A stretch of 8,680 bases of DNA from Candidatus Thorarchaeota archaeon. Its GTDB lineage: Archaea; Asgardarchaeota; Thorarchaeia; Thorarchaeales; Thorarchaeaceae. Positions 1-8,680 of this stretch are shown here, piece by piece. The notes below the pieces were generated by a model that was given only the letters and a program-made list of their open reading frames with translations, did not search any database and was not told the DNA's origin. A program made the translations under genes and the position numbers. The stretch covers positions 1 to 8,680 of the forward strand of contig SHMX01000017.1 in NCBI GenBank assembly GCA_008080745.1. The letters are read 5' to 3'. How positions within the stretch are numbered: position 1 is the first letter of the stretch; every line of letters starts with the position of its first letter.

Positions 1-1449
1 TCGATCCTGAGCGAGGAGTTGACTCAACAGATCATCGCGGAGGGATTCGAGTTGCTGATGGACCCCGGTGTGCGTGTCCATAACGAGGAGGCGTTGGAGT
101 TGTTGGCCGATGCAGGGGCCGAGGTCGATTTCGAGGCCCAGATCGCCTACATTCCCCGGGAGATCGTCGAAGGTGCCCTGGAGACCGCGCCCTCGGAGTT
201 TCACCTCTACAACCTGGACGGCGAGCCGGTGGTCCACTACGGCGGCGACAGCGTCCAGTTCGATCCCGGCTCGGCGGCCATCACGATCCTCGATAGCGAG
301 ACCGAGGAGCAGCGAGCGCCGGTCACGGCCGACTTCGTCAAGTTCGTCAAGCTGGTGGAGACGTTGCCCCAGATCGATGCCCAGAGCACGGCCCTGATCT
401 GCGCCGACGTGCCTGAGGAGATCGGTGACCTCTACCGGCTCTACATCGCCCTCAACTACATGCGGAAGCCGATCGTCACCGGTGCCTTCCGCAAGGACAC
501 CTGGTGGACGATGAAGGACATGCTGGCCGCGGTGGCCGGTGGGGAAGAGGCGCTGGCTGAGAAGCCGATCGCCATCTTCGACGTCTGCCCCTCGCCGCCG
601 CTCCTGTGGAGCGATCTGACCTGCCAGAACATGATCGACTGCGCCCGTTACGGGATCCCCTCGGAGCTGGTCTCCATGCCCCTGGCCGGTGCCACGGCCC
701 CGGTCACCATCGCCGGCGCTGTGGTGCAGCACGCCGCCGAGTGCATGAGCGGGGTGACCATCTGCCAGCTGGCCCAGGAAGGCGCCCCCATCGTCTGGGG
801 CGGGTCGCCGGCGGCCTTCGACATGCGCGAGGGGACCACGCCTATGGGCGCTGTCGGTACCTGGATGATCGATAGCGCCTACACCGAGGTGGGCAAGGCG
901 CTCAACATGCCGACCCACGCCTACCTGGGGATGAGCGACGCCAAGGTCGTCGACGCCCAGTGCGGCCTCGAGTCCTCCGGCGGCGCCCTGATGGCGGCCC
1001 TGATCGGTGTCAACATGGTCTCCGGGGCCGGCATGATGGACTTCGAGAGCTGCCAGAGCTACGAGAAGCTGGTCATCGACGCCGAGATCATCGGTATGGC
1101 GAAGCGCCTCGTCGCCGGCGTGGAGCAGCGGGACGACCCCATCGCCCTGACGCTGATGCGCAAGCTGGGGCACCGCGCGGACTACCTGGCTCAGCTCCAC
1201 ACCGCCCAGTGGTTCCAGAAGGAGCAGTATATCCCTTCGGACGTGATCGATCGCGGGTCGCTGGATGCCTGGAAGAAGAAGGGCGCCAAGACGGCCTGGG
1301 AGCGAGCCCAGGACCGGGTGGAGAAGTTGGTGGCGACCTACGAACCGTCGCCCATCTCAGATGAGCTGCGCAGCGAGCTCCGCGCCATCACGCTCCAGGC
1401 CGCCCAGAAATTCGGCATGGACGAACTGCCCTCGTTGACAGAGAAGTAA
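1..1449 (+). CDS. mttB: MttB-superfamily (trimethylamine:corrinoid methyltransferase-like) protein, non-pyrrolysine type; 5'-partial
   Basis: Frame 1 is open from base 1 (SILSEELTQQIIAEG...), so the true start lies just upstream of the window and the track's TTG at 19 is probably internal. MttB-like segments include GVRVHNEEALELLADAGA, CPSPPLLW, SMPLAGATAPVTIAG, FDMREG, GMSDAKVVDAQCGLE and GAGMMDFESCQSYEKLVIDAEI. No in-frame TAG; stop TAA 1447-1449. The symbol is family-level only and the substrate is unknown. Confidence 0.93.
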   Translation, partial: SILSEELTQQIIAEGFELLMDPGVRVHNEEALELLADAGAEVDFEAQIAYIPREIVEGALETAPSEFHLYNLDGEPVVHYGGDSVQFDPGSAAITILDSETEEQRAPVTADFVKFVKLVETLPQIDAQSTALICADVPEEIGDLYRLYIALNYMRKPIVTGAFRKDTWWTMKDMLAAVAGGEEALAEKPIAIFDVCPSPPLLWSDLTCQNMIDCARYGIPSELVSMPLAGATAPVTIAGAVVQHAAECMSGVTICQLAQEGAPIVWGGSPAAFDMREGTTPMGAVGTWMIDSAYTEVGKALNMPTHAYLGMSDAKVVDAQCGLESSGGALMAALIGVNMVSGAGMMDFESCQSYEKLVIDAEIIGMAKRLVAGVEQRDDPIALTLMRKLGHRADYLAQLHTAQWFQKEQYIPSDVIDRGSLDAWKKKGAKTAWERAQDRVEKLVATYEPSPISDELRSELRAITLQAAQKFGMDELPSLTEK

Positions 1450-1459
1450 CCCGATTCCA

Positions 1460-1465
1460 GAGGAG
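1460..1465 (+). promoter_or_regulatory. Shine-Dalgarno site of the corrinoid protein gene
   Basis: GAGGAG ends 8 nt before ATG 1474. Confidence 0.75.
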
Positions 1466-1473
1466 AAAACGGA

Positions 1474-2118
1474 ATGTCAGACGACATCTTGACCCAGATC
1501 ACCAAGAGCTTAGTAGAGATCGAACCGGACCGGGCGGTTGAGTTGACCCGGAAGGCGCTGGAGGCCGACATGGCTCCCTTGACCATCATCAACGAGGGGC
1601 TGGTGCCGGGCATGGACATCATCGGGGAGAAGTTCCAGACCGGGGAGTACTTCCTGCCCCAGATGGTCATCGCCGCCACGGCCATGCAGCAGGCGATGGA
1701 GGTCCTGGAGCCCGAGCTCCGTGCTCGCCAGGAGGCGATGGAGGTAGCCGGCACGCTGGTTATCGGCACCGTGGAGGGCGACATCCACGAGATCGGGAAG
1801 TCGCTGGTGGCCACGATGATGTCGGCCAACGGGTTCCGCGTCCACGACGTGGGCGTGGATGTGACGGCCGAGACGTTCGTCGAGCAGGTCAAGGCGACGG
1901 GCGCCAATCTGCTGGGCCTGTCGGCGCTGCTGACGACGACCATGACGGCGCAGCGGGACGTGATCGAGGCGCTGGAGGAGGCCGGGCTGCGCGACCAGGT
2001 CAAGGTCATGGTCGGCGGGGCGCCGGTCACCGCCGAGTGGGCCGAGGCGATCGGCGCCGACGGCTACGCCGAGGACGTGATCGGCGCTGTCGAGCTCGGC
2101 AAGCAGCTGGTGGCGTAG
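1474..2118 (+). CDS. Corrinoid (B12-binding) methyl-acceptor protein, MttC/MtbC/MtgC-like
   Basis: N-terminal helical cap (IINEGLVPGMDIIGEKFQTGEYFLPQM), base-off/His-on motif DxHxxG (GTVEGDIHEIGKSLV), SxL motif (GLSALLTTTM) and GGAP motif. Lies 24 nt after the MttB-like gene. Stop TAG 2116-2118. Confidence 0.95.
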   Translation: MSDDILTQITKSLVEIEPDRAVELTRKALEADMAPLTIINEGLVPGMDIIGEKFQTGEYFLPQMVIAATAMQQAMEVLEPELRARQEAMEVAGTLVIGTVEGDIHEIGKSLVATMMSANGFRVHDVGVDVTAETFVEQVKATGANLLGLSALLTTTMTAQRDVIEALEEAGLRDQVKVMVGGAPVTAEWAEAIGADGYAEDVIGAVELGKQLVA

Positions 2119-2137
2119 AGCGGGAGTCTGGAGGCGA

Positions 2138-2938
2138 GTGGCGACGATGGGTTCGGACGTTTTGAACGGCGACGGCGGCATCCTGGAGAAGAAACCGCTG
2201 AAAAGCGAGGTCTTCGAGCTGTTGCACCGGCGCATCGTCGGTGGGCAGTACGCCCCAGGTGAGTGGCTGCGCCAGGAGGAGATCGCCAAGGAGCTCGGGG
2301 TGAGCCCCACCCCGGTTCGAGAGGCCCTCGACCAGCTGGTCGCTGACGGGCTGGCCGAGGGGATCCCTTACCGGGGTGTTCGCGTCCCCAAGCTGACCGC
2401 CGAGGAGATGGCCGATGCCTACGTCCTGCGCCTGCTTCTCGAGGCGATGATCGTCCGGGTGGCGGCGTACAACATGTCGCAGCAACAGGCGGAGGCCCTG
2501 CTCGCCATCCTGGGACGGATGGAGCGGCTGGTGGACTCGGATGACGTCTCGGCGTACCAGCACCTCAACCGCCAGCTGCACGTGGGGATCGTCGCCGCCA
2601 CCAGGAACCAACTCCTCAGGCGTCTCTACGGGCTGGTCATCAACCGCTTTCCCGACTGGATGCTGTACGGCGATCTGCTCGAGCAACCGGACCTCCGTCC
2701 CCCGAAGCTGGAGCAAGACTTCGAGAATCACAAGGCGCTGGTTGAAGCCGTCGCATCGGGCGACGCCGATCGAGCGGCGCGTGAGATGATGGCCCATATG
2801 CATAGCGTTCGTGACGAGCTAGTGGCCTGGAGGGACGTCCCCAGGGATCTTCTGGATGAGAAGGAGCGGGAGATTAGGGCTTTGTTGCCGGCAGAGGGCG
2901 GTGAGGGCGTCAGCAATGAACTCTCCTCTGAAAATTGA
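2138..2938 (+). CDS. GntR family transcriptional regulator (FadR subfamily, FCD effector domain)
   Basis: Winged HTH YAPGEWLRQEEIAKELGVSPTPVREAL...GLAEGIPYRGVRV, plus FCD-type motifs LRLLLE, LNRQLHVGIVAATRNQLL and HKALVEAVASGDADRAAREMMAHM. Start is ambiguous (GTG 2138 or ATG 2147; GGAGG at 2130-2134). Stop TGA 2936-2938. Confidence 0.92.
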   Translation: MATMGSDVLNGDGGILEKKPLKSEVFELLHRRIVGGQYAPGEWLRQEEIAKELGVSPTPVREALDQLVADGLAEGIPYRGVRVPKLTAEEMADAYVLRLLLEAMIVRVAAYNMSQQQAEALLAILGRMERLVDSDDVSAYQHLNRQLHVGIVAATRNQLLRRLYGLVINRFPDWMLYGDLLEQPDLRPPKLEQDFENHKALVEAVASGDADRAAREMMAHMHSVRDELVAWRDVPRDLLDEKEREIRALLPAEGGEGVSNELSSEN

Positions 2939-2962
2939 CACCCAACTGATCCATGCTATACT
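2935..2962 (+). promoter_or_regulatory. sigma70-type promoter upstream of the ABC transporter genes
   Basis: TTGACA (2935-2940), 16-nt spacer, then TG-c-TATACT (extended -10; hexamer 2957-2962), in a locally AT-richer stretch about 90 nt before the SBP start. Confidence 0.78.
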
Positions 2963-2991
2963 AGGGCAGAGTCCCCTTAGCCCCCCTATCG

Positions 2992-3024
2992 TGTATTCCA
3001 CAAGGGCGCATATGTTTTCACAAG
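2992..3024 (+). promoter_or_regulatory. Candidate tandem operator: TGTATTCCACAAG / TGTTTTCACAAG
   Basis: Two imperfect direct copies (2992-3004, 3013-3024), each with TGT...ACA dyad symmetry, starting 21 bp apart, downstream of the predicted promoter. Confidence 0.35.
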
Positions 3025-3049
3025 CACCTTTAGATGAGGGAGGAGAACC

Positions 3050-3886
3050 ATGAAGAAAGCTTCTGCAGCCTTGACGCTCATCGTTGGGTTGGCTTTGCTG
3101 CTCTCCGCATGTGGGACGCAACCCGCTGAGGAGGGACCGGAGCCCTGCCCTACCTGTCCGCCGACCGGCGTTTCAACCGATCTCGGTGGTCGAGAGATTA
3201 TCGTCCCCCTGGATATGGCCTACCCCCCCTTCAGCTACGCCGACCCCGAGACTGACGAGCCGACCGGTTTCGACCTCGACTTCTGGAACGCGGTCTGTGA
3301 AGAGCTCAACTGCGAGCCGAACTTCGTCACCGCATCCTGGGAGGGCTTCTTCGAGGCGATGGAGGCTGGCGAGTACGACGTCGGCGAGGGTGGCCTGACT
3401 CTGACGCTGGCTCGCGCCATGCGGGTCGACGTCTCTATGCCCTACGTCGAGTACGGCCAGGTGATCCTCAAGACGGCGGGTGACGATCGAGCAGCGTTCG
3501 CGGATGAGGAGACCTTCGTCGCTTCAGACCTGACCATCGGCACCCAGATCGGCACCACCAACGAGATCGCCGCCCTCAAGATGGTCGCCGACGAAGACCG
3601 GGTGGTGAGCTTCGAGACCTACGATATGCCCGTCGTCTCTCTGCTGGCTGGCGATGTCGACTCAGTCATCATCGATGAGGTCTCCGCGGTTGGGTTCATG
3701 CAGCAGCATCCCGGTGAGCTTGAGGTTGCCTTCACCGTCACCGGCGGCGAGTACCTGGTGATCTTCTTCCCAACCAAGAGCGATCTGTTGGTACCCGTCA
3801 ACTGGGCCATCAAGCAGATGTTCGAAGACGGCACGATGGACGAAATCTGCGAGAAGTGGCTCCTGCGACCCTGTACGCCTGAATAG
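3050..3886 (+). CDS. Polar amino-acid ABC transporter substrate-binding lipoprotein (SBP family 3, HisJ/GlnH-like)
   Basis: RBS AGGAG 3041-3045. Signal peptide MKK plus hydrophobic core plus lipobox LSA-C21. Family-3 motifs DMAYPPFSY, GFDLDFWNAVCEELNC, GLTLTLAR..VDVSMPY, GTQIGTT, GDVDSVIID and DGTMDEICEKW. Stop TAG. Confidence 0.93.
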   Translation: MKKASAALTLIVGLALLLSACGTQPAEEGPEPCPTCPPTGVSTDLGGREIIVPLDMAYPPFSYADPETDEPTGFDLDFWNAVCEELNCEPNFVTASWEGFFEAMEAGEYDVGEGGLTLTLARAMRVDVSMPYVEYGQVILKTAGDDRAAFADEETFVASDLTIGTQIGTTNEIAALKMVADEDRVVSFETYDMPVVSLLAGDVDSVIIDEVSAVGFMQQHPGELEVAFTVTGGEYLVIFFPTKSDLLVPVNWAIKQMFEDGTMDEICEKWLLRPCTPE

Positions 3887-3893
3887 TCTACCG

Positions 3894-3929
3894 GTCCCCT
3901 CTCCCTGCGAGACAGAGGAGCGAGGGGAC
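3894..3929 (+). repeat. Inverted repeat / stem-loop immediately after the SBP stop
   Basis: GTCCCCTC (3894-3901) is the reverse complement of GAGGGGAC (3922-3929); inner CTCC/GGAG and CTG/CAG pairings are also possible. No U-tract. Confidence 0.65.
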
Positions 3930-3968
3930 TCCAGAGAGGTTCTGTAGAGCGAATCTCAGGGGGAGAAG

Positions 3969-4005
3969 CGATGCGGGGCACCCCGCGCCCTGGTGCCCCG
4001 CATTG
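3969..4005 (+). repeat. Perfect 12-bp GC-rich hairpin in the SBP-permease spacer
   Basis: ATGCGGGGCACC (3971-3982) pairs perfectly with GGTGCCCCGCAT (3992-4003), 9-nt loop, extendable by G-U and C-G pairs. No U-tract. Confidence 0.8.
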
Positions 4006-4085
4006 GACTCGGCCTCATCGTCGGGAGAATATCCGAATCACCAACCAGCGTAGTAACGCCAGTTGTTCTAGCAAAGGAGTGTTCC

Positions 4086-4952
4086 GTGGCCGTCGAACGT
4101 GAAAGTACGGTTCAGACTCAACGCGGGGTGATACCCTGGACCAGCAAATTGGTGGATCTGCCCTGGTGGATTCTGCTTGCGTTGTTGCTCGGTGTGACGA
4201 TGATCTACCTCATCATCACACGCCCCCTCTACACCGCGGCCTTCGAGTTTGTGCTCGAAGGGGTGCGCCTCACCATCGTGATCAGCATCGTCTCCTTTGC
4301 CATGGCCCTGGTACTGGGTCTGATCGCCGGGCTGGGTCGGGTCTCGAGGAACGTCATCTTCAACACCCTCGCCTCCTTCTACGTGGAGATCGTGCGCGGA
4401 ATTCCGCTCCTGGTGTTGCTGATCTACTTCGCATTTGTCATCACCCCCATGATCCTGGAAGCGATCGTGTGGTTCGGAACCAGTGTCCTCATGCCCATCG
4501 GCCTGAGGGGGATCGGGGGCGTGTTGGCCAATGTCGAGATCCGGGATGTTGATATGACGGTGCGAGCGGTGGCCGGGCTGGCCTTCTGCTACGGCGCCTT
4601 CGAGGCCGAGGTCTTCCGCGCCGGCATCGAGTCGATCGCCCGGGGCCAGATGGAGGCTGCTCGCTCGCTGGGCATGACCTACGCCCAGGCGATGCGACAC
4701 GTCATCCTGCCCCAGGCTATCCGCCGCGTCCTCCCGCCCTTCGGCAACGACTTCATCGCCATGATCAAGGACTCAGCGCTGGTCTCCGCCCTGGCGGTGG
4801 CGGATTTGACCCACCTGGGTAAGCTCCACCGGGCGCGTACCTTCCGCACGTTCGAGACCTGGAACACAGTCACGTTTCTCTACCTGGTGATGACCCTCAC
4901 CCTTTCTGCCGGTGTGAAGTTATTGGAGAGGAGGATGTCCTTTGAAGAGTAG
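4086..4952 (+). CDS. Polar amino-acid ABC transporter permease (HisM/GlnP-like)
   Basis: Multiple hydrophobic segments, [14 protein letters not shown] motif and EAA loop [38 protein letters not shown]. Start reassigned from 3993 to GTG 4086 because AAGGAG lies at 4074-4079 and the 3993 start falls inside a hairpin. Stop TAG. Confidence 0.93.
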
Positions 4953-4977
4953 AAAGAAAGAACCCGAGCTGATCCCT

Positions 4978-5715
4978 ATGGGGGACAACATCATTCTCAT
5001 CGAACATCTCTGCAAGAGCTTCGGGGACACCAAGGCAGTTGTGGACGTCAACCTCGAGGTTGAGCGGGGAGAGGTCTGCTTCATCTTCGGACCCAGTGGC
5101 GGTGGCAAGAGCACCCTCCTGCGGTGCATCAACCACCTGGAGACGCCCGATAAGGGCCGGGTCGTCGTCGATGGGATCCCCGTCAACGACAAGAAGACCA
5201 ACATCAACAAGGTCCGGGCCGAGGTCGGTATGGTCTTCCAGCTCTTCAACCTCTTCCCTCACCTCGACGTGCTGGGCAACATCACCCTGGCCCAGCGGAA
5301 GGTCCTGGGCCGGTCAGAGGCGGAGGCCCGCCAGATCGCCGTCGAGCTCCTGGAGCGGGTGGGCATCCCGGAGAAGGCGAATGCCTTCCCCGGCCAGCTG
5401 TCGGGTGGCCAGAAACAGCGCGTGGCCATCGCCCGGGCCCTAGCGATGAACCCCATGATCATGCTCTTCGACGAGCCGACGTCGGCCCTCGACCCGGAGA
5501 TGATCAAGGAGGTGCTCGACGTGATGCTCGACCTGGCCCAGGAGGGGATGACCATGGTCGTCGTCTCCCACGAGATGGGCTTCGCTCGGGCAGCGGCCGA
5601 CCGTATGGTCTTCCTGGACGAGGGATGCGTCGTCGAGGAGGGACCCACGGAGGAGATTTTCTGCGATCCGAAAGAGGAGCGGACGAAGCAGTTCATGAGC
5701 CAGATTCTCCACTAG
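4978..5715 (+). CDS. Polar amino-acid ABC transporter ATP-binding protein (GlnQ/HisP-like)
   Basis: Walker [10 protein letters not shown]-loop MVFQ, signature LSGGQKQR, Walker [12 protein letters not shown] and H-loop SHEMGFA. Likely start is ATG 4978 (track gives TTG 4942, overlapping the permease). Stop TAG. Confidence 0.95.
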
Positions 5716-5748
5716 GCAGTCTCTGGCAGCGAACCGTGAACGATATTC

Positions 5749-5777
5749 CAGGCGCCGAGCACTCCGCTCGGCGCCTG
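5749..5777 (+). terminator. Perfect 12-bp hairpin after the ABC ATPase (terminator-like or RNA stabiliser)
   Basis: CAGGCGCCGAGC (5749-5760) pairs with GCTCGGCGCCTG (5766-5777), loop ACTCC. Only a weak U-tail follows (TTGGCTGTCT). Confidence 0.55.
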
Positions 5778-5833
5778 TTGGCTGTCTGGATCGCAGGTGC
5801 TGCGACGATGGTGTCGCCGTTCCATTGAGAAGA

Positions 5834-5861
5834 GTGGGGGCACGGCGCGCCGTGCCCTTAC
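5834..5861 (+). repeat. GTAG/GTGG-type REP-like palindromic element
   Basis: GTGG, then a perfect 20-nt palindrome GGGCACGGCGCGCCGTGCCC (5838-5857), then TTAC. This matches the GT(A/G)G-palindrome-CTAC architecture of REP elements, with one mismatch in the 3' tetranucleotide. Confidence 0.6.
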
Positions 5862-5886
5862 GATCCCAACGATGCAGGAGGACGAC

Positions 5887-6954
5887 GTGAGACTTCGAAT
5901 CGAGTGCGACAAGATCCGCGAGAACGCCGGGGCCCTCGTAGCGCTGGCCGCCCACCACGGGATCGACGTGGTCGGCGTGACCAAGGCCTGCTGCGGCCAC
6001 CCCGACGTCGCCCACGCCATACTCGCCGGCGGCGTGAAGACCCTGGCCGACTCCCAGCTGAGCAACATCCAGCGCATGCGCCGGGCCGGCATCGACGTCG
6101 ATATGATGCTCCTCCGCCTGCCCCGTATCAGCCAGGCCGGCGCTGTGGTCGAGTTGGCCCAGGTCAGCCTCAACTCCGAGGTGGAGACCGTGCGCGCCCT
6201 CTCCCACGCCGCCCAGGCCCGCGGGGTGACCCACCAGGTGATCCTCATGATCGAGACCGGCGACCGGCGCGAGGGCGTGATGCCCGGGGACGCCCTCGAC
6301 GCGGCCCGGGCGATGATGGAGTTGCCCGGCATCGAGCTGGTCGGCGTCGGTGCCAACCTGGCCTGCATCGGCGGGGTGCTGCCCACCCGGGAGAACACCC
6401 AGCTGCTGGTCGACATCGCCGGGGAGCTGGAGGATGCCCTGGGCGTCCGTTTCCCCGTCATCTCCGGGGGTCACACCTCCAACCTCGACGTGTTGGTGCG
6501 GGACGAGATGCCGGCCCGGGTCAACCAGCTCCGGGTGGGAGAGGCGATCCTCCTGGGCGTGAACAGCACTACCGGCAACCCCATCCCCTGCCCACACCAG
6601 GACGCCTTCACCGCCTTCGTCGAGGTGATCGAGCTCAAGACGAAGCCGTCGATGCCCGAGGGCGAGATCGCCGTCGACGCCTTCGGGCGGAAGCCCCATT
6701 GGGAGGATCACGGACCGCGCCGGCGGGCGATCCTGGCTGTGGGCGAGCAGTACGTCCGCATCGCGGCCCTGCGCCCCAAGCGCCCGGGGGTGTCGATCGT
6801 CGGTGCCAGCTCCGATCACCTGGTGGTCGACGTCACCGAGGCCGCCCCCCCGGTCCGGCTGGGCGACGAGCTGGCCTTCGACCCGGCCTACGCTGCGGTG
6901 GCCACTGCCATGGCCAGCGTCGGCGTGCCGGTGGAGGTCGTTCCTCACCGTTGA
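5887..6954 (+). CDS. Ornithine/alanine racemase-family fold-type III PLP enzyme (Orr-like)
   Basis: RBS AGGAGG 5876-5881 supports GTG 5887 (355 aa; track start 5797 is too long). PLP-lysine motif GVTK (Lys codon 5983-5985), plus VILMIETGDRREG, GANLACIGG, ISGG, LRVGEAILLG, EVIELKTKPS and GASSDHL, as in ornithine-racemase-like proteins. Stop TGA. Confidence 0.88.
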   Translation: MRLRIECDKIRENAGALVALAAHHGIDVVGVTKACCGHPDVAHAILAGGVKTLADSQLSNIQRMRRAGIDVDMMLLRLPRISQAGAVVELAQVSLNSEVETVRALSHAAQARGVTHQVILMIETGDRREGVMPGDALDAARAMMELPGIELVGVGANLACIGGVLPTRENTQLLVDIAGELEDALGVRFPVISGGHTSNLDVLVRDEMPARVNQLRVGEAILLGVNSTTGNPIPCPHQDAFTAFVEVIELKTKPSMPEGEIAVDAFGRKPHWEDHGPRRRAILAVGEQYVRIAALRPKRPGVSIVGASSDHLVVDVTEAAPPVRLGDELAFDPAYAAVATAMASVGVPVEVVPHR

Positions 6955-6960
6955 TCTTCG

Positions 6961-6991
6961 GCGGGCGCGGTCTGGGACCGGTCGTTCCCGC
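6961..6991. terminator. Imperfect hairpin between convergent genes (possible bidirectional terminator)
   Basis: GCGGG/CCCGC outer stem and CGGTC/GACCG inner stem with bulges, in the 38-nt gap between the racemase stop and the - strand stop. Confidence 0.35.
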
Positions 6992-6992
6992 G

Positions 6993-8680
6993 TTAGCGGG
7001 AATCCCCGATCCGGGTCAGGAAGACGTCGAAGGCGCCGGCGCCGTAGGCATTCGTCTGGCCCACCAGGGTGTAGCTCCCATCCGGAGCGGTGCAGACCGC
7101 GCTGGCCCAGTTGAAGCCCTCACCGCCGATGGTCCGGGTCCACAGAACCTCCCCATCCTCATCTGTGCGCGCCACGTAGACCGCGTTGTCGGTCCCGCGG
7201 ATCGTCTTGGTGCTGCCGGCGAGGAGGTATCCGCCGTCGTCCGTCTCTACCACGTCGTTGCCGTAGTCGTAGAAGATCGTCTCGCCGATGCTGCTGACCC
7301 ACTCCTGGTTGCCGTCGGCATCCGTCTTCAGCAGGATGGCGTTGAGCGTCTCCTGCCCCTGGGAAGACGTGTCCGAGTTGCCGGCGACGATGAGACCGCC
7401 GTCGCTCGTCTCGCGGATGGCGTTCCCCCAGTCGTAGCCCAGGTGACCGGGGAAGCCGATCGCCTGGGACCAGACCTCGTTCCCCTCGTTGTCGATGCGC
7501 ACCAGGTAGACGTCCCGATTCGAGGAGTGGGAGCCCGTGGAGCCGACCACGACCAGGTCGCCATCGTTGGTCTCGATCACCGCCTCCCCCATCTCCGGCC
7601 CGGTATCGCCGAAGGTGCGGGACCAGATCTCGTTCCCCTGGGCGTCGGTGCGGATCAGGTAGAGGTCGTCGAGGCCGGCGCCGGAGGACTCGGTGTACCC
7701 GGCGATGACCAGATCCCCGTTCCCCGCCTCGACCACCGACCGGGCCACGTCGACCCCCGTTCCGCCGAAGGTCTGGGACCAGAGCTCGTTCCCTTCGCCA
7801 TCGGTCTTCACCAGGTAGACGTCGCGGGCACCGGCCCCCGACGAGGTGGTGTACCCCGCGGCCGCGTAACCGCCGTCGCCGGTCGGGGTGACCGAGAAGG
7901 CGACATCCCAGCCCCGGCCGCCGAAGCTCTTCGACCAGACGACGCTACCCTGGGCATCGGTCTTCACCAGGTAGAGATCGGCGTACCCCTCGCCGAAGGA
8001 GTGGGTATAGCCGGCGATGATGAAGCCCCCATCGTCCGTGGCCTCGATTGCGTGGCCACCCTCGGCCGCGGGGCCGCCCAGCGTCGCCGCCCAGACGACG
8101 TCGTCGACGGGAGCGGCCGCGGAGTGGGTGTCGAGCGCGTGGTTGATGTCGACCTCGAGGTCGAGACCCTCCAGGGCGATCCCCACCGCGTTGCAGTTGG
8201 GGACCGTGTTGTAGAGCCCGCGTTTGGTCAGCACGATGTTCCCGGCGATGGTGGGCCGGGCATCGGCCGGCACCTGGAGGTTCTGCGCCAGACCGGCGGC
8301 CTCGAGCGGCTGGTCCATCCGGCACAGGGCATAGAGCACCAGCCCCTCCTCATTCGCTGCCCCGATCAGGTCGATCACCTCCTGGTTGTCCTCTACCTCG
8401 CGGCCCCCTTCCCGGCTGACGGGCATCAGGGCCAGGACGTCGTACTCGGCCACGTCGTCGATCTCGGAGACGAGCACGTCGACCTCGAGCGCGCCCGAGC
8501 CGTGCTGGAGGGCGAACTGGCGGCAGGGCCGGACCGATTCGGTGACCCCGGTGAGGGTGACGTCCCACCCGAAGAGCTCGAAGTTGTCGAGGATCAGGTG
8601 CGTGTTCGCACCGTAAAGGTCGCTGACCAGGGCCAGGACGCGGACGTCCTCCGTGGTCGAGGTGGGGATGGGGGTGGGTG
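6993..8680 (-). CDS. Putative extracytoplasmic protein: Pro/Thr linker + divergent DJ-1/PfpI-like domain + 7-repeat beta-propeller; 5'-partial
   Basis: The frame of track ORF 6993..8477 stays open to the window edge, adding PTPIPTSTTEDVRVLALVSDLYGANTHLILDNFELFGWDVTLTGVTESVRPCRQFALQHGSGALEVD. DJ-1/PfpI-like elements are YDVLALMP, LYALC...LEAAGL and GNIVLTKRG. The C-terminus has seven ~52-aa repeats. Stop TAA 6993-6995. Confidence 0.85.
   Translation of the reverse strand, partial: PTPIPTSTTEDVRVLALVSDLYGANTHLILDNFELFGWDVTLTGVTESVRPCRQFALQHGSGALEVDVLVSEIDDVAEYDVLALMPVSREGGREVEDNQEVIDLIGAANEEGLVLYALCRMDQPLEAAGLAQNLQVPADARPTIAGNIVLTKRGLYNTVPNCNAVGIALEGLDLEVDINHALDTHSAAAPVDDVVWAATLGGPAAEGGHAIEATDDGGFIIAGYTHSFGEGYADLYLVKTDAQGSVVWSKSFGGRGWDVAFSVTPTGDGGYAAAGYTTSSGAGARDVYLVKTDGEGNELWSQTFGGTGVDVARSVVEAGNGDLVIAGYTESSGAGLDDLYLIRTDAQGNEIWSRTFGDTGPEMGEAVIETNDGDLVVVGSTGSHSSNRDVYLVRIDNEGNEVWSQAIGFPGHLGYDWGNAIRETSDGGLIVAGNSDTSSQGQETLNAILLKTDADGNQEWVSSIGETIFYDYGNDVVETDDGGYLLAGSTKTIRGTDNAVYVARTDEDGEVLWTRTIGGEGFNWASAVCTAPDGSYTLVGQTNAYGAGAFDVFLTRIGDSR
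6996..8093 (-). repeat. Seven tandem ~52-aa coding repeats (W-x3-[FIL]-GG-x-G-x-D...DGG-x3-AG-x-T...D-x-YL-x-[KR]-TD-x2-GN), likely beta-propeller blades
   Basis: Repeats begin at WAATLGG, WSKSFGG, WSQTFGG, WSRTFGD, WSQAIGF, WVSSIGE and WTRTIGG; the first Trp codon is at 8093-8091. Confidence 0.85.

Follow-up and report, generated by a model that had tools for sequence, protein, structure and literature searches.

The window analysed here is a stretch of 8,680 nucleotides that forms the complete contig SHMX01000017.1 (C17; 8.7 kb, GC 0.65) of the assembly GCA_008080745.1, deposited as a Candidatus Thorarchaeota archaeon. It carries a system of the MttB-superfamily corrinoid methyltransferase kind with an unusual accessory enzyme, namely a pyridoxal 5'-phosphate (PLP)-dependent racemase. 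An original prediction, made from the sequence letters, had placed seven co-directional genes in positions 1-6954, and profile matches from Pfam and NCBIfam recovered all of them. The promoter at 2935 and the hairpin at 5749 that it described were both found in the sequence, and the second methyltransferase of such systems (MT2) and the RamA-type activase, which it had reported as missing from the window, are indeed not present there. The features are the following:

1..1449, + strand: MttB methyltransferase, non-pyrrolysine, of the 'W1' subfamily (PF06253)
1474..2118, + strand: cognate corrinoid (cobalamin-binding) protein (PF02607, PF02310, TIGR02370)
2138..2938, + strand: GntR/FCD transcriptional regulator (PF00392, 61.2 bits; PF07729, 84.7 bits)
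2935..2962, + strand: sigma-70-like promoter TTGACA-16-TATACT with TG extension, in the spacer between the regulator and binding-protein genes
3003..3049, + strand: conserved leader before the binding-protein gene (alignment of C17 and L014)
3050..3886, + strand: SBP_bac_3 family-3 binding lipoprotein of a polar/cationic amino-acid importer (PF00497, lipobox)
3993..4952, + strand: permease of the ATP-binding cassette (ABC) importer (BPD_transp_1, PF00528)
4942..5715, + strand: ABC ATPase (PF00005)
5749..5777, + strand: GC-rich hairpin with a 12-bp stem and 5-nt loop, in the spacer between the ATPase and racemase genes
5887..6954 (open frame from 5797), + strand: Orr-like fold-type-III PLP racemase (PF01168, Ala_racemase_N; NF040742)

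The MttB protein matches PF06253 with 297.6 bits (cut-off 25) across model positions 33-492. As this match begins at position 33 and the frame is open, the 5' end of the gene is cut by the contig end, and about 25-30 N-terminal codons appear to be missing. The frame 1-1449 has zero in-frame stops and a methionine at the pyrrolysine position, and it scores 393.8 bits, below the cut-off of 525, against TIGR02369, the equivalog model for pyrrolysine-type trimethylamine (TMA) methyltransferases. Its best match of solved structure, at 208 bits, is MtgB (PDB 2QNE, 9YCE), which binds glycine betaine by cation-pi contacts from Y97 and F356 and holds the carboxylate by R312 and H348 (PMC13080624). In the HMMER alignment to 9YCE the residues Y97/R312/H348/F356 correspond to S91/H306/S341/E349 of the C17 protein. 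The arginine R312 is reported to be conserved across all characterised MttB enzymes acting on acidic quaternary amines (PMC13080624); direct alignment to MtgB, alone among the characterised enzymes, places a histidine at this position in the C17 protein and in all 44 aligned sequences of its clade. The pocket signature S-H-S-E is found throughout the window subclade, S-H-S-L in a sister subclade and G-I-F-S in a further clade of racemase-adjacent MttB proteins, and as judged from these alignments none of the three matches a characterised specificity type. The characterised non-pyrrolysine enzymes remove one methyl group each, off a quaternary nitrogen (PMC12155760, PMC13080624).

Orthologues of the window MttB with 84-87% identity occur in the related loci L014, L094, L126 and L127. 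In the closest relative, locus L095 (G041:C6) holds at ~4900-5700 fragments of another window-type MttB copy (49-61% identity, interrupted by TGA and TAG stops), which lie ~8 kb upstream of the intact gene and look like a decayed duplicate. Where the C17 protein has its methionine, MttB genes of Thermoleophilia have a TAG (AGL*ADS; ATDS in L047), as seen in their racemase loci L058 (12634-14334), L047, L048, L055, L060, L068, L076 and L083. Because this conserved TAG sits at the pyrrolysine position, those actinobacteria probably encode pyrrolysine-type MttB.

The corrinoid protein scores 241.3 bits against TIGR02370, above the cut-off of 215.3, and has the cobalamin-binding motif DxHxxG in the form DIHEIG; the MtgC-specific models reach 198-210, below their cut-offs of 310-370. 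The components that are absent from the window are available in its relatives: RamA (2-3 copies) and Pterin_bind (2-4 copies) proteins are encoded elsewhere in each of the genomes G041, G043 and G091, and two URO-D (MT2-like) genes lie beside the orthologous MttB in L094. In Eubacterium limosum MT2 and the activase are likewise encoded away from the MttB gene (PMC12155760).

For the racemase the true start is most likely the GTG at 5887, because an AGGAGGA precedes it at 5876-5882 and the homologues are ~356 residues long. The protein matches PF01168 with 88.2 bits (cut-off 24.1), and its best NCBIfam match is the Orr model NF040742, of which it covers 343 of 351 positions at 368 bits, below the cut-off of 480. 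The models for BhcC, Alr and VanT give ~21-23 bits. The PLP lysine, K33 in a GVTK motif, is invariant in 119 of 121 sequences. Two positions that are conserved in at least 90% of 120 homologues are changed (R57Q and D289Y), and both changes are common to the four nearest relatives; they are therefore a lineage-specific paired substitution and not a sequencing error. That they mark a changed specificity is speculation on our part, while a basic amino acid is most likely the kind of substrate on which the enzyme would act.

The binding protein of the importer begins with a lipoprotein signal (LLLSAC). TIGR01096 (Lys/Arg/Orn) is its best NCBIfam match, at 105.8 bits and hence below the cut-off of 256.35, and the nearest solved chains are AncQR, AncCDT-1 and ArtJ. 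With these and the LAO group (10.1101/157495) it shares the anchor residues (T-x-T..R and Asp) that hold a free alpha-carboxylate and alpha-ammonium, along with the side-chain-pocket Asp and Trp (equivalents of D19 and W60); it differs from them in being ~30% identical, below the TIGR01096 cut-off, and in having Ala for D21 of AncCDT-1. For AncCDT-1, binding of Arg, Orn, His and Lys in the micromolar range or tighter is reported (10.1101/157495). The C17 protein thus resembles the binders of cationic amino acids most closely, and these constitute its predicted ligand class. The permease gives GlnP-, EhuC- and EhuD-like matches, all below cut-offs, and has orthologues with 56-73% identity; as the homologues are ~290 residues long, its true start is probably ~30 codons further downstream. 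The ATPase matches the GlnQ, TcyN and EhuA models, again below cut-offs. We considered an ectoine-type transporter and rejected it, since the Ehu matches are sub-cut-off, EhuB reaches 21 bits and no Ehu chain appears among the solved-structure matches.

Homologues of the GntR/FCD regulator (33-46% identity) are found in related loci as the first gene of MttB and of racemase operons alike. The promoter-like site at 2935-2962 has 11 of 12 consensus matches, and it is the one such site in the window, with 1.2 expected by chance; L014 has a comparable site (TTGACT..TAGAAT) at the equivalent place. The leader that follows at 3003-3049 is, by eye, ~85% identical to L014 over ~50 nt, and the remainder of the spacer does not align; this element may be an operator or an RNA element. 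No convincing common palindrome that might serve as a shared GntR operator was found in the spacers searched. The hairpin at 5749-5777 has a perfect 12-bp stem and is followed by another hairpin at ~5836-5859. A clear T-run is missing from both, and for this reason the first was not called by the terminator scan.

C17 does not belong to the archaeon under whose name it was deposited. The assembly contains 5 short contigs with a GC content of 62-65% (C14, C15, C17, C18 and C19) and 14 others, including the bulk contigs, at 39-43%. No contig in it joins the two compositions, and the estimated contamination of the bin is 4.8%. With a GC of 0.65 against 0.39-0.43 in the bulk contigs, C17 is a mis-binned contig, and the five high-GC contigs are most likely contaminants from one or more high-GC organisms. 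It follows that the other genes of the bin give no context for C17; we therefore discarded a RamA on bin contig C3, together with 40 relatives of the bin, which lack the racemase. The closest relatives of the C17 proteins are found in Anaerolineales and Anaerolineae metagenome-assembled genomes (MAGs) of the Chloroflexota. Two marine-sediment metagenome runs of one study contain 94-96% of the sampled words of C17, and exact unitigs from a metagenome run tile the contig; an exact-sequence look-up of its racemase and corrinoid protein returned no matching record.

In the likely source run the exact unitig depth is 170 over MttB (875-1643) as against 49-96 over the remaining genes (2278-8196). 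The MttB-corrinoid part may accordingly be duplicated or common to a second strain, and this excess could explain why the contig breaks inside MttB; the corrinoid-GntR junction itself is confirmed by the independent assemblies L014 and L161. We also tried C18 as the missing upstream part of C17 and rejected it, the upstream genes in L014 being different and the joining unsupported. At 93-6149 on its minus strand C18 (locus L004) has the gene order CBS, corrinoid protein, MttB, corrinoid protein, DUF1638, MttB, and both of its MttB proteins belong to other subfamilies, with the pocket signatures PWHA and SYHG. Assembly joints to other contigs had short sides and led to low-identity contigs, which were taken as other organisms. 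Downstream of the racemase, at 6993-8678 on the minus strand, lies a convergent SBBP/delta-60-repeat beta-propeller gene, truncated where the contig ends, that is not conserved behind the racemase in L008, L014 or L161.

We fetched 80 loci encoding relatives of the racemase and searched each of them for the other six window proteins, using gene maps made with our own GC3-based gene caller and blastp clusters. Racemases of at least 50% identity are found in Chloroflexota (59-73%) and Thermoleophilia (50-62%). At least one MttB lies within the fetched flanks in 30 of the 55 loci with such a racemase, and in 17 cases it is the direct neighbour of the racemase in the gene maps. No MttB was detected in any of the 25 loci whose racemase has at most 46% identity (Lentisphaeria, Natroniella, Clostridia, Rhodobacteraceae and others). 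The relatives carry 13-26 MttB copies in 3-6 Mb, so ~8-9% of 20-kb windows would be expected to hold one.

Several distinct arrangements underlie this association. The exact window order recurs in L014, an Anaerolineales MAG (MttB 86%, racemase 73%), and in L161, a JGI metagenome contig of 87-89% DNA identity, and it recurs in part in L008. In L015 it is rearranged, such that orthologous binding protein (59%), permease (60%) and ATPase (72%) genes are followed by an MttB whose stop abuts the racemase start. In L139 and in L042/L044/L046 a pair comprising the racemase and an MttB of a second type is convergent with a pair comprising the corrinoid protein and a window-type MttB. In L094 a distance of 5 kb separates a racemase paralogue from an MttB-corrinoid pair of 85% identity, and the two URO-D genes of this locus fall in the interval. 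The Thermoleophilia loci combine the racemase with several MttB genes (up to six) and a family-3 ABC system. On a metagenome contig (L162, 10001-12141) a racemase of 71% identity stands after a Dpp-type ABC, a further MttB subfamily and an aminotransferase, and before an HDAC-like deacetylase. As a separate observation, the racemase paralogue of L094 (330-3378, minus strand) stands before genes for an EutB-like PLP dehydratase and an EutC-like cyclodeaminase, a trio with the same three-family logic as in hydroxyectoine utilisation (EutABC) and in BhcB/C/D.

A tree of 44 MttB proteins from racemase loci places the window protein in one clade with those of L014, L042, L044 and L046. It is another clade of Chloroflexota, with 10 members and just 27-30% identity to the window MttB, whose genes abut the racemase. 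In L014 such a second-type MttB is divergently encoded immediately upstream of the window-type gene, and C17 has probably lost its own copy at the 5' break. For the reverse test we sampled 301 genomes from the class of the L014 genome, with thresholds of at least 51% identity for the window MttB clade, E <=1e-80 for the racemase and at least 54% identity for the binding-protein orthologue. The window MttB clade is present in 68 of the 301 genomes and the racemase in 19, of which 10 have it at 61% identity or more. The racemase-adjacent MttB clade occurs in 3 genomes, in all 3 of them beside the racemase or in the same locus. Of the 19 genomes with the racemase, 10 have the window MttB clade, as against 58 of the 282 others, which is an enrichment. 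Likewise, the binding-protein orthologue is found in 7 genomes, and the window MttB clade is present in 5 of these versus 63 of the other 294; the racemase accompanies it in only 1 of the 7. We then examined 35 further loci anchored on the window MttB clade, in which the genes most often found nearby encode the corrinoid protein, another, distant MttB and a Dpp-type peptide ABC. The association of MttB, ABC importer and racemase is thus real, and it is modular, not obligatory.

The neighbourhoods also offer clues to the substrate. Lysine 2,3-aminomutase (KamA) genes in related loci score 542-588 against the TIGR03820 equivalog cut-off of 525, and those of the racemase loci and the MttB loci are orthologous. 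The sister subclade of the window MttB has as neighbours lysine 2,3-aminomutase, class-III aminotransferases, pterin-binding MT2 and an M20 hydrolase; class-III aminotransferases recur in related loci, and in Thermoleophilia a LysA/DokD-like decarboxylase adjoins the racemase. A DDAH-like enzyme is encoded inside an orthologous ABC operon, and the neighbourhoods of the ABC orthologues in the six genomes other than that of L014 contain an EutB-like dehydratase, an OSBS/NSAR-type enolase, a DDAH/ADI-like enzyme and an M20 hydrolase. The HDAC-like deacetylase that follows the racemase in L162 belongs with these neighbours, most of which act on basic amino acids. The original prediction had suggested a basic amino acid methylated on its side chain: the binding protein and these lysine, ornithine and arginine enzymes of related loci back the word basic, and the methylated side chain stays at the level of conjecture. 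A Kat-variant of lysine fermentation, reportedly described by Perret et al. in 2011, is said to comprise KamA, KamDE, Kdd, Kce and Kat. Its likeness to the present case lies in the KamA, class-III aminotransferase and thiolase genes beside MttB and racemase genes in related loci; it differs in that none of its genes is in the window and KamA is not found in the two closest relatives.

As in the MtgB/MtgC/MtgA system for glycine betaine:tetrahydrofolate methyl transfer of Desulfitobacterium hafniense, a TIM-barrel first methyltransferase (MT1) without pyrrolysine stands next to a cognate DxHxxG corrinoid protein, and in both systems MT2 and the activase may be encoded elsewhere. The C17 system differs in that all four substrate residues of MtgB are changed, the MtgC-specific models are not reached, and the transporter is of the amino-acid and not the betaine type and comes with a PLP racemase. 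A precedent for an MttB with a co-localised helper acting on the substrate, found through conserved gene neighbourhood, is the MthB/MthC/MthA/MthK system for choline (phosphocholine) in Eubacterium limosum (PMC12155760); there, the helper is the kinase MthK, which makes the substrate acidic (phosphocholine), whereas in C17 it is a PLP racemase and the substrate would be an amino acid. The racemase in turn is like Orr of ornithine-fermenting Clostridia in its fold type III, full-length match, PLP lysine and basic-amino-acid context. It differs in scoring below the Orr cut-off, in being ~40-45% identical to the Orr-like proteins of Natroniella and Clostridia, and in having MttB neighbours in place of the oraSE/ortAB context of ornithine fermentation. 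In the literature searched, MttB was not linked to a PLP amino-acid racemase, to trimethyllysine or to lysine aminomutase.

Gene identities, conserved motifs and the recurrence of the association are observations; from them we infer a substrate, an order of steps and a mode of regulation as follows. We tentatively propose, with somewhat less than even confidence, that the seven genes form a linked catabolic island for an N-methylated cationic alpha-amino acid in a member of the Anaerolineales from marine sediment. Methylated lysine is the leading candidate substrate, with methylated forms of arginine or ornithine as further possibilities. An amino acid with free alpha-amine and alpha-carboxylate would be taken up by the binding lipoprotein and its ABC partners, and MttB would hand one of its N-methyl groups to the neighbouring corrinoid protein in the Co(I) form. 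Two enzymes encoded outside the window would complete the cycle, a methyl-corrinoid:tetrahydrofolate (or URO-D-type) methyltransferase and a RamA-type activase. The PLP racemase would convert either the substrate or its demethylated product between the D and L forms, making both usable, and the GntR/FCD protein may regulate the island, within which the unit of ABC and racemase genes would have its own promoter.

A number of observations weigh against this proposal, and its chief rival is that two separate modules adjoin: the MttB, corrinoid and GntR genes would then serve an unrelated small quaternary or methylated amine, and the ABC and racemase genes the ordinary uptake and racemisation of basic or D-amino acids. 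Their adjacency would reflect an inherited order in one Anaerolineales lineage together with a general clustering of amine and amino-acid genes in MttB-rich genomes. The gene blocks are separated by a promoter-like site of their own for the ABC genes and by two hairpins in front of the racemase. The exact window order is restricted to close relatives (73-91% protein identity). The MttB abutting the racemase in most loci is another paralogue, with GIFS and not SHSE in its pocket, and in the reverse test a racemase orthologue was not seen in 58 of the 68 genomes with the window MttB clade; members of that clade lie more often beside a Dpp-type peptide ABC or beside nothing informative. Neither MttB nor racemase was found within 10 kb of the ABC orthologues in the six genomes other than that of L014, and a search of the two closest relatives, G041 and G043, brought up no KamA. 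In L018, L027, L029 and L069 the racemase is paired with an ABC system and MttB is absent. In place of MttB, about a third of the racemase loci carry an Amidohydro_3 gene together with a Dpp-type ABC, a combination pointing to ordinary D-amino-acid salvage. The co-occurrence of MttB, family-3 ABC and Orr-like racemase across genomes, which the original prediction had proposed to test, is thus partly borne out: the recurrence of the order and the 30 of 55 racemase loci with a nearby MttB speak for it, and the differing paralogue beside the racemase, the many genomes with the window MttB clade alone and the ABC orthologues with neither gene nearby weaken it. Two unrelated modules are nonetheless held to be somewhat less likely than a linked island, as the association is found in at least four arrangements and two phyla, far above the ~8-9% expected by chance, and the window MttB clade is enriched both with the racemase and with the binding-protein orthologue.

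The genes might alternatively be linked and act on a substrate that is alpha-N-methylated, D-configured or peptide-borne, such as N-alpha-methyl or N-alpha-trimethyl amino acids or methylated residues from imported peptides; the MttB paralogues would then expose the alpha-amine, and only afterwards could the racemase act. The presence of at least two different MttB genes per locus (window type and racemase-adjacent type in L014, L139 and L042-46; up to six in Thermoleophilia) would fit such a sequence of events, as would the Dpp-type peptide ABC systems, M20 peptidases and D-aminoacylase-like amidohydrolases of related loci. We regard it as improbable, given that the binding protein retains the Arg/Thr carboxylate anchors and the alpha-ammonium Asp, which argues for a free alpha-amine at uptake, and that the characterised non-pyrrolysine enzymes take a single methyl group from a quaternary nitrogen, as noted above. 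Lastly, the sub-cut-off Orr score, the paired R57Q and D289Y changes and the L094 paralogue in a family trio like that of BhcC, BhcB and BhcD might hint that the racemase-like protein is another fold-type-III PLP enzyme (for example an aldolase, decarboxylase or eliminating enzyme) that uses the product of demethylation, which is very unlikely in view of the full-length Orr match, the low BhcC, Alr and VanT scores and the retention of the PLP lysine and most family-invariant residues.

Returning to the proposal of a linked island, a wider form of it, which we hold to be doubtful at present, is that MttB enzymes of Chloroflexota and Thermoleophilia would demethylate N-methylated basic amino acids (such as N-epsilon-methyl-lysines or N-omega-methyl-arginines from decaying proteins), with paralogues working in series and an Orr-like racemase as a dedicated accessory. 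An MttB subfamily that lacks the carboxylate-binding arginine of all characterised members and is tied to the import and racemisation of basic amino acids would widen the chemistry of the family to methylated amino acids. If true, it would add a new substrate class to the MttB superfamily, for which TMA and acidic quaternary amines are known so far, and would constitute an anaerobic route by which methyl groups from protein modification enter one-carbon metabolism in sediments. With the window MttB clade in 68 of the 301 sampled genomes and a marine-sediment source for C17, such a pathway could matter for the turnover of methylated nitrogen and for methyl flux in anoxic sediments.

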